DNA of 59,218 bases from an uncultured archaeon (GTDB lineage Archaea; Asgardarchaeota; Lokiarchaeia; Sigyniarchaeales; SOKP01). The position numbers were made by a program, and so were the translations under genes. The stretch's first letter is position 1, and every line of letters begins with the position of its first letter. The DNA lies in assembly GCA_964583985.1 (NCBI GenBank), contig CAZOYD010000017.1, positions 1 to 59,218 of the forward strand. The letters are read 5' to 3'. Shown here one piece after another: positions 4,182 to 13,800 of the stretch. The notes beneath the pieces are model-generated. The model worked only from the letters and a program-made list of their open reading frames with translations, did not search any database and had not been told where the DNA came from.

Positions 4182-4859
4182 TCATGCTTGTTTTTTGACG
4201 AATTCCCCATTCTCCAATTTCATAAAATAATCACAAATAATAGTTAAAGGGCATTCCTCACATTTTGGAGATCTTGGTATGCAGATTAATGCCGCCATAT
4301 CCAAAATAGCGTAATTTAATTCCTTGAAGTGTTTATCCGGCATTAAGAATTGCATTCTCTCAGCCAGTTTCTTATCTCTTGAAGGAGCATTTTTAACTGG
4401 AAAAGAAAAAATACGTTTCATAATTCTACCCACATTTGCATCAATAATCGCGATTTTATTATTAAATGCAAAGCATAGCACGGCATTAGCGATATAATCT
4501 CCAACACCTGGTAACTTCAAAAGATCTTCTTTATTTGATGGGACCACGTTTCCTGAATTGAGAATGATTTCTGAAGTTTTCTTTAAATCTCTAGCTCTTC
4601 TATTGAATAAACCTAAAGGCTGAAGTAAGTTAGCAAGGTCATCTTCGCTCAAGTTCACAATACTTTCAGGATTTGGATGACTTCCAATAAAACTTGGAAA
4701 GATATTTTCAACTTGAGAAGCATTGGTTTTTTGCAACATTAATTCTGCAACTAATACTTGAAATGGTGTTAATTTGAGAATTCTCCACGAAAATTCTCTC
4801 TTGTTATTTTTAAACCAATCAAGGATTAGTTTAATAAAAGTTTTATCCTTCGAATCCAT
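4182..4859 (-). CDS. HhH-GPD DNA glycosylase of the MutY/Mig (G:T mismatch) type with [4Fe-4S] cluster
   Basis: AELMLQKT, HhH LLKLPGVGDYIA, catalytic IDANV, CIPRSPKCEECPLTIIC (CX6CX2CX5C); no MutY C-terminal domain. Confidence 0.88.
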   Translation of the reverse strand: MDSKDKTFIKLILDWFKNNKREFSWRILKLTPFQVLVAELMLQKTNASQVENIFPSFIGSHPNPESIVNLSEDDLANLLQPLGLFNRRARDLKKTSEIILNSGNVVPSNKEDLLKLPGVGDYIANAVLCFAFNNKIAIIDANVGRIMKRIFSFPVKNAPSRDKKLAERMQFLMPDKHFKELNYAILDMAALICIPRSPKCEECPLTIICDYFMKLENGEFVKKQA

Positions 4860-4891: not shown

Positions 4892-5668
4892 TTATTTAAA
4901 TTTCACTTTTTCGTGTTGAAGATAACTCTTTTTTATTAGAAGGTCTATTTCGGAGTTTAGCCAACATAGTTCATCATAAGTAATGGAAGAATTGAATATT
5001 TCTTCTGCTTTGGTTTTAATTTTCTCTAAACTGGGCAAACTGAAGTTGATCTTTTGAATTTTTTCTGCAAGAAACCAACAAAGTTCATCATAGCTGAAAT
5101 TTTTAAGTGAAAAAAAGTAGGCTCCTTCCCGTGTTTGGTATTCAAAATCGAATTCTACTTCAGAACCAAGACGATTATAACTCTTTTTATCAAAGCTTTC
5201 CAAACTAGTTGCTTTTTCAGGTTTGAATTCTGTTTTTCTGTGTGCTCTAATTTGCTCCAACCACTTGGTGATAAGCGTTTCAGTTTTGCCCTCTTCCATT
5301 ACTTCAGGCATTTTTTGGATTTCTTGCTTTGGTTTTTGTATTGGACGTTCTAAGTGTAGTTCAGGACGCCTTTCAGTAGTTTTACCTGGGATTAATCCTT
5401 TCCTAAGATCATCCATCATGGCAAGAAAGGACCCAAATTCTCTTTTTTGTTTCATAATTAAAATGCGTGTTAAGATATCATCATCCCGTTCTATTTGTCT
5501 GGCAAATTCTGCAGCAAAATTTTTTTGTTTATCAGAGACTTTTAATCCAACCCAAATATATATTTCATTTTTAATGATATCATCGACTACATAAATTTCA
5601 TCATCATTAAACTCTAATTTATATAAATCTTCTAATTCCCCATCATCATTAATTCGATATAATTTCAT
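4892..5668 (-). CDS. Asgard gelsolin-domain protein with C-terminal repeated helical domain (1DGelX-like); start probably ATG 5668
   Basis: N-terminal KLYRIN...FNDDEIYVVDD...IYIWVG...AAEFARQI...KQKRE.GSFL matches the gelsolin repeat pattern; the C-terminus has two YDELCW repeats. Confidence 0.75.
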   Translation of the reverse strand: MKLYRINDDGELEDLYKLEFNDDEIYVVDDIIKNEIYIWVGLKVSDKQKNFAAEFARQIERDDDILTRILIMKQKREFGSFLAMMDDLRKGLIPGKTTERRPELHLERPIQKPKQEIQKMPEVMEEGKTETLITKWLEQIRAHRKTEFKPEKATSLESFDKKSYNRLGSEVEFDFEYQTREGAYFFSLKNFSYDELCWFLAEKIQKINFSLPSLEKIKTKAEEIFNSSITYDELCWLNSEIDLLIKKSYLQHEKVKFK

Positions 5669-5858
5669 GAGAATCTGATTCAAATAATTATCTAATATGG
5701 AATTAATTTCAATGAAGGCTTAAAAATCTTATTTGTTTGTCTGAAATTAATTTTTCGTAGTTTTTAAATTAAATTAATAAATTAATGATGTCTCACAGCT
5801 TCTAAATAAGATTTCATATGAACTATTATCATAATTTAAAAAGAGAGGAGTATTTCGT

Positions 5859-8012: not shown

Positions 8013-8047
8013 CAGAAAAAAAATTAATCAATGAAATTTGAGAAAAA

Positions 8048-8506
8048 TTGTCTACTAAACAAATTGTAATAATTACCGGTTGTAGTGTAAAAAAACTTAA
8101 TATAAAAGCTCCAGCCCTAGAACTCTATCAAGGAGTAGTATTTAAAAAAGTGAAAGATTTGGCTACATCATTAGGGCTAGATTTAATGATTTTAAGTGCA
8201 AAATATGGGCTTATAGACGGATCTGAAATCCTAAGCCCTTACAACACAGTTATAAAAAAAAAGGAAGACATCTTAAAATTGCGGGAGAGAGTCATACCAC
8301 AGTTACTCCAAATAGAAAAAGTTTATTCCCTTATTATACTCATTATGGGAAAAAATTATCGTGCGGTGATTGCCCCTAGGTTTGGAGAAAAATATAAAAT
8401 GATACATGATTCTAGGGGTATTGGTGCCTTAACTTCAAGATTAAACAAATATATTAAAAGTTCCTTAGAAGTGTTTATGGGTGATTTAGAAGATTGCCGA
8501 ATTTGA
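8048..8506 (+). CDS. DUF6884-like (YaaA/DpdC-related) protein
   Basis: GCSVKK...PALELYQG..F...ILSAKYGLI....L.PYN is the recognisable DUF6884/YaaA-like signature; convergent with the dpdA-like gene. Confidence 0.7.
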   Translation: MSTKQIVIITGCSVKKLNIKAPALELYQGVVFKKVKDLATSLGLDLMILSAKYGLIDGSEILSPYNTVIKKKEDILKLRERVIPQLLQIEKVYSLIILIMGKNYRAVIAPRFGEKYKMIHDSRGIGALTSRLNKYIKSSLEVFMGDLEDCRI

Positions 8507-8511
8507 TACAT

Positions 8512-9702
8512 TTAAGAGGAGCGTACATCTTTTACCAAAGAGAAGTAGTTGTAGACATTATGAAATCCTCTTGACATGTTTCTCATTCTCCTTCTGAAAA
8601 CACATACATGAATTTGATATTTTACACAGAGATCACACTCACATTTTTTCCAAGGAGTGTCCATCAATAATTTTATTATTAGATCATCATTTAACTCATA
8701 GTTCTTATTGCGTAGTTTGTTATATTTTTTATAAAATTTTTTTAAAGATAATATGAAATCGTGATGACTCATTTCATAATTGGAGAAATCTTTAAGATCA
8801 TTGAAGATTTTTATATCTAGTTCTTGTTTTCCATATGTATTATTAGTTAAAGGTAATCGAATTGAAGTATAATACTTCATGCTTTTACTGCTTTTATGAT
8901 ATAGAAAGTATGATTTTTTTTCATCCGTCCAAGATTTTCTCATCACATTATTATCAAATTGCGTCACTCCTACATCGATGAACAATGGAAGATATTCTAT
9001 ATTTCCTCTTCCAAAGATATGAACATTCTGAAATTTTTTGAATTTCGGTTCCAATTGGATTAATAAGTTCTCCAGTGTTAGATCGTTTCTATCTTCTATT
9101 TTAGTCTTGTTTAACCCTACTAAACCACCAATACACAGATTTTTATAGCCAAGTTTAAATAAATAATCTACGATTTGTGAATATGACTGGATATCCCATC
9201 CTTGAGCTACCCCAAACAACTCAAAAGTATAATTATTTTCGCGATATAGTTCAATGCATTCCTTAGCATACTCTTTTGTTATTTTATACCTATTCTCTCG
9301 TTCAGAAACATCATTTTTATTAGTAATAATGTGATCAATCGAGCAACCCATATCAAATCCGTGATCCTGATAATAACTGAGGATTTCACGTGCTGTATAA
9401 GGAGGTTTTTCTTCATTTCGGTATTGAAAAGCACCACAATCTCCGAACAATTTGATATCCTTAGGAAGGGAAAATGCCATTTTTAAATTTTTATTATTTT
9501 TTAATAAATGGGAAAATCTACTCTGATTTATATCAAATTTCGATTTTGAAATTAATAGACCATCGAATGGGACGTTTTTAAAACATTCAAATATGAATAA
9601 TCTCCCCTTTTTTTCTTCCCAATCATCATCCCATGGATGCCATTCTTTAGGAATTTGGTCGAATTCAAATGGAAGAAAGAATAATAACTTGTTAGATGTC
9701 AT
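8512..9702 (-). CDS. dpdA: DpdA-like guanine transglycosylase (TGT family, DNA 7-deazaguanine insertion type)
   Basis: DGLLISK, GDCGAFQY..E..PPY, GFDMGCSIDHII, GVAQGW, IGGLV, HIFG, Zn motif PWKKCECDLC and RGFHN. These match DpdA rather than tRNA TGT. Confidence 0.8.
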   Translation of the reverse strand: MTSNKLLFFLPFEFDQIPKEWHPWDDDWEEKKGRLFIFECFKNVPFDGLLISKSKFDINQSRFSHLLKNNKNLKMAFSLPKDIKLFGDCGAFQYRNEEKPPYTAREILSYYQDHGFDMGCSIDHIITNKNDVSERENRYKITKEYAKECIELYRENNYTFELFGVAQGWDIQSYSQIVDYLFKLGYKNLCIGGLVGLNKTKIEDRNDLTLENLLIQLEPKFKKFQNVHIFGRGNIEYLPLFIDVGVTQFDNNVMRKSWTDEKKSYFLYHKSSKSMKYYTSIRLPLTNNTYGKQELDIKIFNDLKDFSNYEMSHHDFILSLKKFYKKYNKLRNKNYELNDDLIIKLLMDTPWKKCECDLCVKYQIHVCVFRRRMRNMSRGFHNVYNYFSLVKDVRSS

Positions 9703-9742
9703 CTTAAATTAAACTTTCCTCTCTTTTTTGATTTTACTTCTT

Positions 9743-12658: not shown

Positions 12659-13213
12659 TTGGATGGATCAATTGTATTTAAGGGAGCTCCCAAGAAGCAA
12701 AATTTCTTTAAGATATGCATAGTTGGTGACTCAGGAGTAGGTAAAACAACTATTTTGCATAGATATTTAAGTGGGAGGTTTAAATCGAAAGCTGAGATAA
12801 CTATCGGCTCAAATTTTTTTGTTAAGTATATTAAATTACCTGACGTCAAGGATCTAATAACCATGCAAGTGTGGGATTTAGCTGGTCAATTACACTTCAA
12901 ATGGGTCAGATTTGCATTCTATAAATCAGCAAAAGGTATTATTTATGCATTTGATTTGACTCGTAAGAACACCCTTGAAAACTTGGAAAAATGGAAAGAG
13001 GAAGTTGAGAGCCAAATAGGCAAATGTCCTAGCTTACTTGTCGGAAATAAGATAGATTTGGTTAATCCTCAAACAGAAATCATTTTAAAAGAAGATATTA
13101 AAAAATATTGTGGCATTCTTGGAACAAGTGCTTATTTTGAAACAAGCGCGAAGAAAGGAACAAACATAGATGATGTTTTTTTCCGAATTGCTACAGAAAT
13201 GTATAAAGAATAA
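12659..13213 (+). CDS. Rab/Ras-like small GTPase
   Basis: G1 GDSGVGKT, TIGSNF, G3 WDLAGQ, G4 NKID, G5 ETSAK. Confidence 0.92.
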   Translation: MDGSIVFKGAPKKQNFFKICIVGDSGVGKTTILHRYLSGRFKSKAEITIGSNFFVKYIKLPDVKDLITMQVWDLAGQLHFKWVRFAFYKSAKGIIYAFDLTRKNTLENLEKWKEEVESQIGKCPSLLVGNKIDLVNPQTEIILKEDIKKYCGILGTSAYFETSAKKGTNIDDVFFRIATEMYKE

Positions 13214-13242
13214 AATGGATATATGCAAAAAAGTGAAAAATA

Positions 13243-13800
13243 ATGACAGAATTAAATGAAAATCAACGTAAAAAAAAGGTTCTTCCCAGTCCAGGCACTT
13301 CGGTCTACGCCTTGATAGATGAAGATGAAGAGAAAAAGAAGAAAACTCTAAAGAAGTGGCGGTTGCTAAATAAAATATTGATAGTTCCCCTTTATCGAGC
13401 AAGACTTTTACCTTTATTGGGGTTCGGTAAGATTTTTTTAATGATCGAAACAAAAGGAAGGATAACCGGAAAAAAGAGAAGAACTCCCGTGGAGTATCAT
13501 CGTGTTGAAGATGTAATTACCATAATTTCAGCGAGAGGTCTTGATGCGGGATGGCTAAAAAATATTCAAACTAACCCTTCTGATGTCTATATCAGAAAAG
13601 GTTTTCGTGGTTTTAAACCTCGAGTAGAAATTATAAATTCTGAAAATAAAAAATTAGATTTTCTCTATTGGTATGTGAAAAATTGTGGGAAATCTGCTAA
13701 GATGTTATTTGGTTGGGATCCAAAAAATGATACTATTGAGTCAACTGATTTTTCTCGAATGGTAAAAGCAATGACTATTGTCCAAGCCCATGAAAATTAA
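13243..13800 (+). CDS. Deazaflavin (F420)-dependent nitroreductase family protein (DDN-like)
   Basis: LMIETKGRITGKKRRTPV and WLKNIQTNP motifs. Confidence 0.8.
   Translation: MTELNENQRKKKVLPSPGTSVYALIDEDEEKKKKTLKKWRLLNKILIVPLYRARLLPLLGFGKIFLMIETKGRITGKKRRTPVEYHRVEDVITIISARGLDAGWLKNIQTNPSDVYIRKGFRGFKPRVEIINSENKKLDFLYWYVKNCGKSAKMLFGWDPKNDTIESTDFSRMVKAMTIVQAHEN

Follow-up and report, generated by a model that had tools for sequence, protein, structure and literature searches.

Two kinds of DpdA, the enzyme that inserts 7-deazaguanines into DNA, are described in the literature we searched: the bacterial bDpdA, which is accompanied by DpdB, and the viral subfamilies DpdA1 to DpdA4 (PMC6884629; PMC10516641). 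The DpdAs of phages act without DpdB (PMC6884629; PMC10516641), and in Salmonella DpdC acts independently of DpdA and DpdB (PMC10164549). Here we analysed a 59,218-nucleotide stretch of DNA (contig CAZOYD010000017.1, referred to as the window) from an Asgard (Promethearchaeota) archaeon, the assembly of which comprises 3.8 Mb in 138 contigs with a marker completeness of 100% and a contamination of 5%. The window carries a predicted dpdA gene and, convergent with it, a gene encoding a small DUF6884 protein related to DpdC (Table 1). On balance, and with slightly more confidence than doubt, we read this pair as an orphan two-gene module for 7-deazaguanine modification of DNA, derived from Dpd-like islands that lack DpdB, and the archaeon probably marks its own chromosome with a 7-deazaguanine. 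An initial annotation, made from the letters of the window alone, had pointed to the same pair. Both open reading frames (ORFs) lie where it had placed them, as seen in the ORF list and by direct reading of the sequence, with convergent stop codons five bases apart; the motifs it had quoted (GDCGAFQY, EKPPY, GCSIDHII, QGW, PWKKCECDLC, and RGFHN) are all present in the 396-amino-acid (aa) DpdA translation, and its remark that no dpdB, dpdD-K or que genes are recognisable in the window holds.

Judged by its sequence, the 396-aa protein is a true DpdA and not a tRNA-guanine transglycosylase (TGT). It scored 251.2 bits (cut-off 200) against the NCBIfam equivalog NF041059, covering model positions 24–401 of 406, and 228.5 bits against the PADLOC DpdA model, compared to 36–49 bits against tRNA TGT models (TgtA 36.5, cut-off 350; Tgt 38.4, cut-off 306.75). 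The initial annotation had proposed this very comparison and had named clustering with tRNA-acting TGTs as evidence against its idea; as far as sequence tells, no such clustering was found. The sole solved structure matched by the protein was Salmonella DpdA (7UI4, E 7e-44), and by mapping the alignment with 7UI4 onto the residues named in PMC10164549 we predicted Asp88 as general acid, Asp123 as base-binding residue and Asp250 as nucleophile (Asp95, Asp130, and Asp256 in Salmonella), as well as Cys354, Cys356, Cys359, and His381 as zinc ligands. Across 29 aligned relatives none of these residues varies. Gln167, also predicted to be base-binding and likewise invariant, falls at the position of Salmonella His181. 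The protein has no PUA domain or other tRNA-binding extension, ends right after the zinc subdomain and aligns with DpdA from end to end, and in a phage collection it found one weak match of 27% identity. A profile search showed that it is the single DpdA of the whole genome, in which a bona fide archaeal TGT (arcTGT; 467 bits, contig C38) and an ArcS-like gene, as assigned by homology, cover the tRNA role separately.

The 152-aa neighbour matched Pfam DUF6884 (PF21818) with 66.8 bits (cut-off 30), while 17.3 bits against YaaA/DUF328 (PF03883) left it below the cut-off for membership in that family (29.6). In PADLOC it matched PDC-M57A and, partially, several DpdC models, and similarity over the full length of DpdC was not found. 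According to the Pfam paper, DUF6884 resembles YaaA and is marked by CxxxK and LSAxxG motifs, both of which were found in the protein, and a preprint on dpd islands gives DUF6884 as the domain of DpdC; consistently, the gene in the DpdC position of an Enterobacter cloacae dpd island matched DUF6884. In an alignment of 21 DUF6884 sequences, including three bacterial proteins from the DpdC position, Cys12, Tyr27, Ser50, Tyr65, and Tyr104 are invariant and Lys16, Ala23, Ala51, and Gly54 nearly so, giving the conserved pattern C12-x3-K16, Y27, S50-A51-x-x-G54, Y65, Y104. An AlphaFold (AF2) model built with 23 relatives reached a predicted local distance difference test score (pLDDT) of 94 and a predicted template modelling score (pTM) of 0.88. 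Among 48,161 PDB representatives the best fold match of this model was Escherichia coli YaaA (5CAJ; Z 9.3, 144 residues, root mean square deviation 3.6), followed by AF0587 with an ArcS-type domain (2Q07; Z 8.1, 121 residues), the next match having a Z of 6.5, and Foldseek returned the same two structures on top in the same order. By sequence, the PDB gave nothing meaningful, the best match being to unrelated receiver domains (E 0.097). Sequence and model together indicate that the protein is a miniature homologue of bacterial DpdC with a YaaA-like fold, and the DUF6884/YaaA-like assignment of the initial annotation is thereby borne out by both the Pfam score and the structural comparison.

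The second fold match provided a possible link to archaeosine synthesis. The structure 2Q07 is homologous to the C-terminal half of the ArcS-like protein of this genome (E 2.4e-16), where a P-C-x3-K-P-Y element followed by S-P-L-G stands in register with the C-x3-K and S-A-x-x-G of DUF6884. When DUF6884 was compared with the ArcS C-domain at the profile-profile level, significance was reached neither with one sequence (E 0.0022, 13% probability) nor with a 30-sequence profile (E 0.034, 1.5% probability), and a shared nitrile-activating domain therefore remains a lead only; the motif register nevertheless lends some support to nitrile-directed chemistry, as far as sequence and model can speak to it. 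Prediction of a complex of DpdA and the DUF6884 protein, with alignments for both, gave a score of 0.00, below the mark, and no interface was inferred.

The two genes are linked well beyond this genome. A DUF6884-like gene was found in 20 of the 21 DpdA-bearing Asgard genomes, nearly always adjacent to or within approximately 4 kb of dpdA, and DpdB in none of the 21. DpdA of the window clade (>50% identity) occurs in Promethearchaeota only. The next-closest homologues beyond this clade are 33–48% identical, approximately 490–590 aa long and, except for P0018 (492 aa), fusions of DpdA with DUF6884; fusions in the opposite order also exist among other relatives. One fused relative (P0016), folded with 16 relatives, gave good domains without a confident relative arrangement (pLDDT 82, pTM 0.66). 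In a maximum-likelihood tree the window clade comprises 16 rows with a Shimodaira-Hasegawa-like approximate likelihood ratio test support of 100 and has the fusion clade as its sister (support 92); it is placed, along with other Asgard sequences, inside a group of 36 rows (support 96), whereas bacterial DpdA genes with an adjacent DpdB are placed elsewhere; the root of this tree rests on one long branch and is not to be trusted. We also surveyed the 80 best loci from species-representative genomes, counting ORFs within 6 kb. A DUF6884/DpdC-like ORF was present in 68 of these loci, a DpdB/DndB-like ORF in 39, and the former without the latter in 36, indicating that the link between DpdA and DpdC/DUF6884 is the more general core and that DpdB-less forms are common. 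Taken together, these comparisons are strong evidence, of the genomic-context kind, that DpdA and DUF6884 are functionally linked.

The closest relatives outside the genus (52–59% identity) hint at where the pair came from. Three of them (L087, L088, and L089) keep the tail-to-tail arrangement of DpdA and DUF6884, and tail-to-tail or overlapping order is also seen in L034–L036. Nuclease and motor modules stand beside the pair in every one of the closest relatives outside the genus, and in another Promethearchaeota genus DUF6884 and DpdA bracket NurA-HerA within one operon (L037; gene orders are given in Table 1). More distant members sit in larger islands, where the accompanying genes are DEAD helicases, PLD, a BrxD-like ATPase, a second TGT, YhhQ or QueCDE, and one member is found within a BREX/methyltransferase island. 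By their gene content these DpdB-less islands look like Dpd-type restriction-modification systems, the operon of L037 being a candidate for such a system. In contrast, tblastn searches of the genome studied here for the island-type NurA, PD-(D/E)xK, and the second TGT gave no homologues, with weak matches to housekeeping HerA only, and for this reason the pair is best read as an orphan modification module. The notion of a minimal pair without DpdB, put forward in the initial annotation, was thus confirmed as to its composition, but Asgard archaea did not invent the pair on their own; it is rather the reduced form of a widespread family of DpdB-less islands. It follows from the orphan state that a self/non-self role, which had also been suggested, would need an unseen partner.

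Within the genus the pair behaves as a discrete unit. DpdA was found in 24 of 399 genomes of the phylum (E <= 1e-20) and in four of the 41 genomes of the genus, and full synteny extends over at least 10 kb in the other three DpdA-bearing members of the genus, in the order HhH-GPD glycosylase, gelsolin-domain protein, UvrD, DUF6884, DpdA, NUDIX, dipeptidase, aldolase, and small GTPase. In the closest species without DpdA (G270; UvrD 73% identical) the gelsolin, UvrD, NUDIX, and dipeptidase genes are contiguous, and the convergent stops of uvrD and the NUDIX gene are 51 bp apart with no ORF between them. The same interval in the window measures 1,730 bp and holds exactly the DUF6884 gene and dpdA; the pair is a clean 1.7-kb indel between two housekeeping genes. 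Since the empty site is contiguous without the pair, the flanking DNA-metabolism genes are host genes and not parts of the module, and the HhH-GPD glycosylase, UvrD, and NUDIX, once considered as members, were rejected because relatives without the pair keep them. The gelsolin-repeat protein and the two small GTPases, kept in relatives of both kinds, have no connection with the pair either. Around the insert only short AT-rich matches of low identity were found as direct or inverted repeats, and no target-site duplication. Pairwise ratios of nonsynonymous to synonymous substitution rates (dN/dS) among the four syntenic species were 0.10–0.18 for DpdA and 0.14–0.26 for DUF6884, at dS up to approximately 1.0, and were indistinguishable from those of UvrD, NUDIX, and dipeptidase. 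Both genes have thus been under purifying selection and vertically inherited since the ancestor of the four species.

Searches of the remaining genome agree with a lack of DpdB and of a canonical dpd island. The DpdB model NF041060 had no match in this genome or in the 21 DpdA-bearing Asgard genomes, a negative result that needs further support because the model was silent in every control genome as well. Pfam DndB likewise had no match in this genome, while its control matched, and three DpdB sequences and one of DndB, used as tblastn queries, found nothing there, nor did DpdD and DpdK of Enterobacter, DpdE-J not being searched individually. No second dpd locus was found, and a complete dpd island elsewhere in the genome, raised in the initial annotation as a reason to doubt its idea, is accordingly not in evidence. 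As to the supply of preQ0 (7-cyano-7-deazaguanine), a QueC domain was detected just below the cut-off of 150.3 (141.6 bits in the ORF scan and 144.5 in the genome search), a QueD-family gene scoring under the model cut-offs divergently adjoins the QueC ORF, and a FolE2/MptA-type GTP cyclohydrolase is present, so that three of the four steps of the pathway were seen. QueC forms the C-terminal domain (residues approximately 310–514) of its ORF, of which the N-terminal 250 residues resemble NAD-dependent reductases of the short-chain dehydrogenase/epimerase type (OleD-like).

From these findings we propose the following mechanism. DpdA would flip a guanine out of double-stranded DNA, form a covalent intermediate between Asp250 and deoxyribose with Asp88 as acid/base, and then install preQ0 drawn from the archaeosine pool of the cell, without the DpdB ATPase and in the manner of phage DpdAs. 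The 152-aa DUF6884 protein would bind the modified site and hydrate the 7-cyano group to the amide, giving dADG (2'-deoxy-7-amido-7-deazaguanosine), plausibly through a thioimidate at Cys12. We infer the DpdA step from family membership and conserved catalytic residues, and the DUF6884 step from homology to DpdC and the shared core of Cys-x3-Lys, Ser-Ala-x-x-Gly, and Tyr. The pair may have arrived between uvrD and the NUDIX gene as a unit of 1.7 kb, or have been pared down to this size, its presumed ancestors being DpdB-less Dpd-like restriction-modification islands whose nuclease and translocase parts (HerA-NurA, UvrD-PD-(D/E)xK) are missing here. Given that these parts are missing, the mark would act as an epigenetic or protective mark of the chromosome, comparable to that of an orphan methyltransferase, and not as half of a restriction system. 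A bolder version, which we offer tentatively and would sooner doubt than accept, is that some Asgard archaea use 2'-deoxy-preQ0 (dPreQ0) or dADG as a stable chromosomal mark, that the two proteins are a self-sufficient writer with neither ATPase nor restriction partner, and that the miniature DUF6884 protein and ArcS share an ancestral nitrile-activating Cys-x3-Lys domain.

Several observations weigh against the reading of the pair as a DNA-modification module. The characterised cellular DpdA requires DpdB and ATP in vitro (PMC10164549), and for that reason DpdB-independent action is an extrapolation from phages; moreover, the base-binding His181 of Salmonella is replaced by Gln167, a residue typical of tRNA TGTs. 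The 152-aa protein has about half the length of bacterial DpdC (models of approximately 310 aa) and is without its C-terminal half, and the PADLOC match to DpdC is limited to residues 18–78, corresponding to model positions 50–111 of 312 (35.8 bits). DUF6884 is also a very large family, with 10,453 clusters at 50% identity, and many of its members are unrelated to DpdA, four genomes of the genus having other DUF6884 genes and no DpdA; hence DUF6884 on its own implies no deazaguanine chemistry. For one member, a link to the binding of DNA lesions is on record (Pfam paper). Finally, QueE was not found in this genome, where TIGR03365 gave only MoaA-like and glycyl-radical-activase-like proteins, and neither were the preQ0 importers QueT and YhhQ, so that the source of preQ0 is explained only in part. 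Most likely the genome has a QueE that went unrecognised, as both arcTGT and ArcS depend on preQ0. The host preQ0 pool invoked in the initial annotation is therefore supported by arcTGT, ArcS, QueC, QueD, and the FolE2/MptA-type enzyme, and left incomplete by the negative searches for QueE, QueT, and YhhQ. In tblastn searches with three QueE sequences and the 254-aa radical-SAM candidates of the genus, a single decayed fragment was found in this genome. It is what remains of a radical-SAM gene of approximately 254 aa, with in-frame stops and only the last 66 or so codons recognisable; the gene is intact in about 20 of the 41 genomes of the genus and missing from all four DpdA-bearing species.

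Other explanations of the pair have to be weighed against the same data. It could still supply the modification in a functioning self/non-self defence system, with a restriction partner that lies elsewhere, is of an unrecognised type, or has been recruited in the form of the adjacent UvrD-like helicase. The nearest relatives are always found beside nuclease or helicase modules, a UvrD-type helicase adjoins the DUF6884 gene in L088 and L089, the UvrD-family gene of the window stops 35 bp before the DUF6884 start, and a BrxD-like ATPase match occurs elsewhere in the genome (contig C58, E 1e-13). However, the UvrD of the window is a housekeeping orthologue of the PcrA/UvrD type, found in 38 of the 41 genomes of the genus while DpdA is found in four only, and is 26–27% identical to the island helicases; tblastn gave no PD-(D/E)xK partner, island-type NurA, second TGT, DpdD or DpdK, and the empty site shows uvrD and the NUDIX gene to be either older than the pair or independent of it. 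We consider a working defence system unlikely, though the least so of the explanations discussed here. That restriction modules of the relatives are absent and QueE was not detected would also fit a pair that is left over from a lost defence island, is decaying and no longer has a function. This we regard as highly improbable, given that both frames are intact, all catalytic residues are kept, and dN/dS remains at 0.10–0.26 across four species, at dS up to approximately 1, equal to that of the flanking housekeeping genes.

The part played by DUF6884 could also differ from that proposed. If DpdA inserts preQ0 and the small protein is a DpdB-like accessory for DNA binding and base flipping, or a handler of lesions or abasic sites, the final mark would be dPreQ0 or another derivative. 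The missing C-terminal half of DpdC is compatible with such a role, as is the proposal of the Pfam curators that the family binds DNA and flips bases, for which they cite a member binding abasic and RNA-base lesions. Uracil-DNA-glycosylase folds are among the weaker Foldseek matches, and its occurrence in fusions with DpdA, in either order, points to physical cooperation, whereas bacterial DpdC acts independently of DpdA and DpdB. Yet the core residues common with the proteins in the DpdC position (Cys, Lys, Ser, and three Tyr) look catalytic, and the second fold neighbour is an ArcS-type domain with a matching P-C-x3-K-P-Y, from an enzyme whose target is the nitrile of preQ0 in tRNA; an accessory role appears to us a little less likely still than a working defence. 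The resemblance to ArcS, whose C-terminal domain works on tRNA, may in turn be taken to mean that the pair acts on tRNA or other RNA as an extra archaeosine-like pathway, and DpdA does belong to the TGT superfamily and carries a TGT-type Gln at the base-binding position. An RNA substrate is nevertheless improbable: the DpdA model gives 251 bits against 36–38 bits for the tRNA TGT models, the 396-aa protein has no PUA or tRNA-binding domain, arcTGT and ArcS are already in the genome, and the relatives stand amid DNA helicases, nucleases, DNA methyltransferases, and BREX genes.

The features of the locus and of the related loci are collected in Table 1. A purine-rich GAGAGGAAAG lies approximately 10 nt upstream of the dpdA ATG on the minus strand, within the right junction, and dpdA may be co-transcribed with the NUDIX operon. 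A scan for sigma-70 promoters and terminators, a model not applicable to archaea, gave counts at the level of shuffled sequence. The DpdC-like/DpdA fusion of another Asgard genome (G296) has FolE2- and QueC-type genes as neighbours on one side; on the other stands a pair of UvrD and PD-(D/E)xK, 37–40% identical to the pair in L080. An island in L206 combines a DUF6884 gene (45% identical to that of the window) and a 354-aa TGT with three N6/N4 DNA methyltransferases, BrxL, and PglZ. A second short TGT-fold paralogue (307–344 aa) next to DpdA/DUF6884 recurs in larger islands (four loci in Table 1), often followed by an unannotated protein of approximately 250–300 aa and by a P-loop ATPase, BrxD-like or other.

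Table 1. Coordinates and composition of the dpdA/DUF6884 locus in the window, of its flanking genes, and of related loci.
Feature	Position	Strand	Remarks
dpdA	8512..9702	(-)	396 aa, ATG start; predicted DNA-guanine transglycosylase of the DpdA family
DUF6884 gene, putative miniature DpdC homologue	8048..8506	(+)	152 aa, TTG start
Spacer between convergent stop codons	8507..8511		5 bp, read directly from the sequence
Left junction of the two-gene indel	8013..8047		35 bp, uvrD stop to DUF6884 start
Right junction of the indel	9703..9742		40 bp, NUDIX stop to dpdA start
HhH-GPD/EndoIII-type glycosylase with Fe-S motif	4182-4859	(-)	Flanks the locus; kept in relatives with or without the pair
Gelsolin-repeat protein	4892-5683	(-)	Flanks the locus; kept in relatives with or without the pair
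Two small Ras-like GTPases	12659-13800	(+)	Flank the locus; kept in relatives with or without the pair
ArcS-like protein	Contig C51, L007:754-2859	(-)
ORF with C-terminal QueC domain	Contig C2:47846-49400 (L009:7820-9367)	(-)	515 aa
Decayed radical-SAM gene	Contig C59:19336-19533
Related locus L037 (another Promethearchaeota genus, G186)	L037:5053-10429	Same strand	Four-gene operon DUF6884-NurA-HerA-DpdA
Related locus L087			Pair + NurA + HerA
Related locus L088			NurA-HerA-DpdA-DUF6884-UvrD-PD-(D/E)xK
Related locus L089			Pair + UvrD-PD-(D/E)xK + second small TGT
DpdC-like/DpdA fusion (G296)	L041:9178-11565		Single 795-aa frame
DUF6884 gene and 354-aa TGT in island	L206:5645-8793
Short TGT-fold paralogues	L080:6875-7891; L082:10933-11967; L083:8212-9135; L089:7296-8237

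In the literature we searched, which did not reach the older key papers, no 7-deazaguanine in the DNA of cellular or Asgard archaea has been described, and DpdA was not found together with Asgard, HerA or NurA; DUF6884 is named there in only two papers. The NCBI pipeline already labels such proteins in metagenome-assembled genomes of Lokiarchaeota/Promethearchaeota as 'DpdA' and 'DUF6884 domain-containing protein'. If the bolder version of our reading is true, the pair would be the first case of 7-deazaguanine DNA modification in cellular archaea and of its use as an 'orphan' epigenetic mark. With only two genes in natural isolation, the locus is a minimal system in which to ask if a cellular DpdA can work without DpdB, what the function of the widespread DUF6884 domain is, and if the mark can have a role outside restriction. 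In addition, the comparative data outline DpdB-less Dpd-like defence islands, with HerA-NurA or UvrD-PD-(D/E)xK, that are not covered by current defence-finder models. An unusual chromosomal base in Asgard archaea would also matter for long-read sequencing, chromatin work, and studies of viruses and their hosts.

Of the known systems, DpdA/DpdB/DpdC of Salmonella enterica serovar Montevideo (7UI4; PMC10164549) shares with the window pair the Asp triad and zinc site of DpdA and the DUF6884 core in DpdC, and its conversion of G to dPreQ0 and further to dADG is the chemistry we would expect here. In contrast to that system, the window pair has neither the DpdB ATPase nor DpdD-K, its DpdC homologue is of half size, Gln replaces His181, the genes are convergent and not in one operon, the host is an archaeon, and its DpdA falls outside the DpdB-linked bDpdA clade. 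DpdA1 to DpdA4 of phages and archaeal viruses (PMC6884629; PMC10516641) insert 7-deazaguanines without DpdB, often using host preQ0, and protect phage DNA, with no DUF6884 partner as far as described; the window gene differs from them in being chromosomal, vertically inherited, and located between host genes. Closer in composition are the DpdB-less islands of a plasmid of Natronococcus sp. CG52, of Paenibacillus pART37, and of the metagenomic contigs L080, L087–L089, and L208, annotated but undescribed in the literature searched. They have the same core, as separate or fused genes and likewise without DpdB, and their DpdAs fall into the same larger clade. Their further components, none of which adjoin the window pair, are DEAD helicases, PLD, a small second TGT paralogue, a BrxD-like ATPase, HerA-NurA, UvrD-PD-(D/E)xK, preQ0 genes or the YhhQ importer. 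The archaeosine pathway of arcTGT and ArcS resembles the pair in that a TGT-fold enzyme inserts preQ0 and a Cys-x3-Lys enzyme then acts on the 7-cyano group, although its substrate is G15 of tRNA and ArcS transfers lysine, not water. In function alone, the pair may be compared to orphan DNA methyltransferases such as Dam and CcrM, modification enzymes that selection maintains although no cognate restriction enzyme goes with them; they share neither chemistry nor fold with the pair, and a regulatory role of the window mark, by analogy with these enzymes, is pure conjecture.

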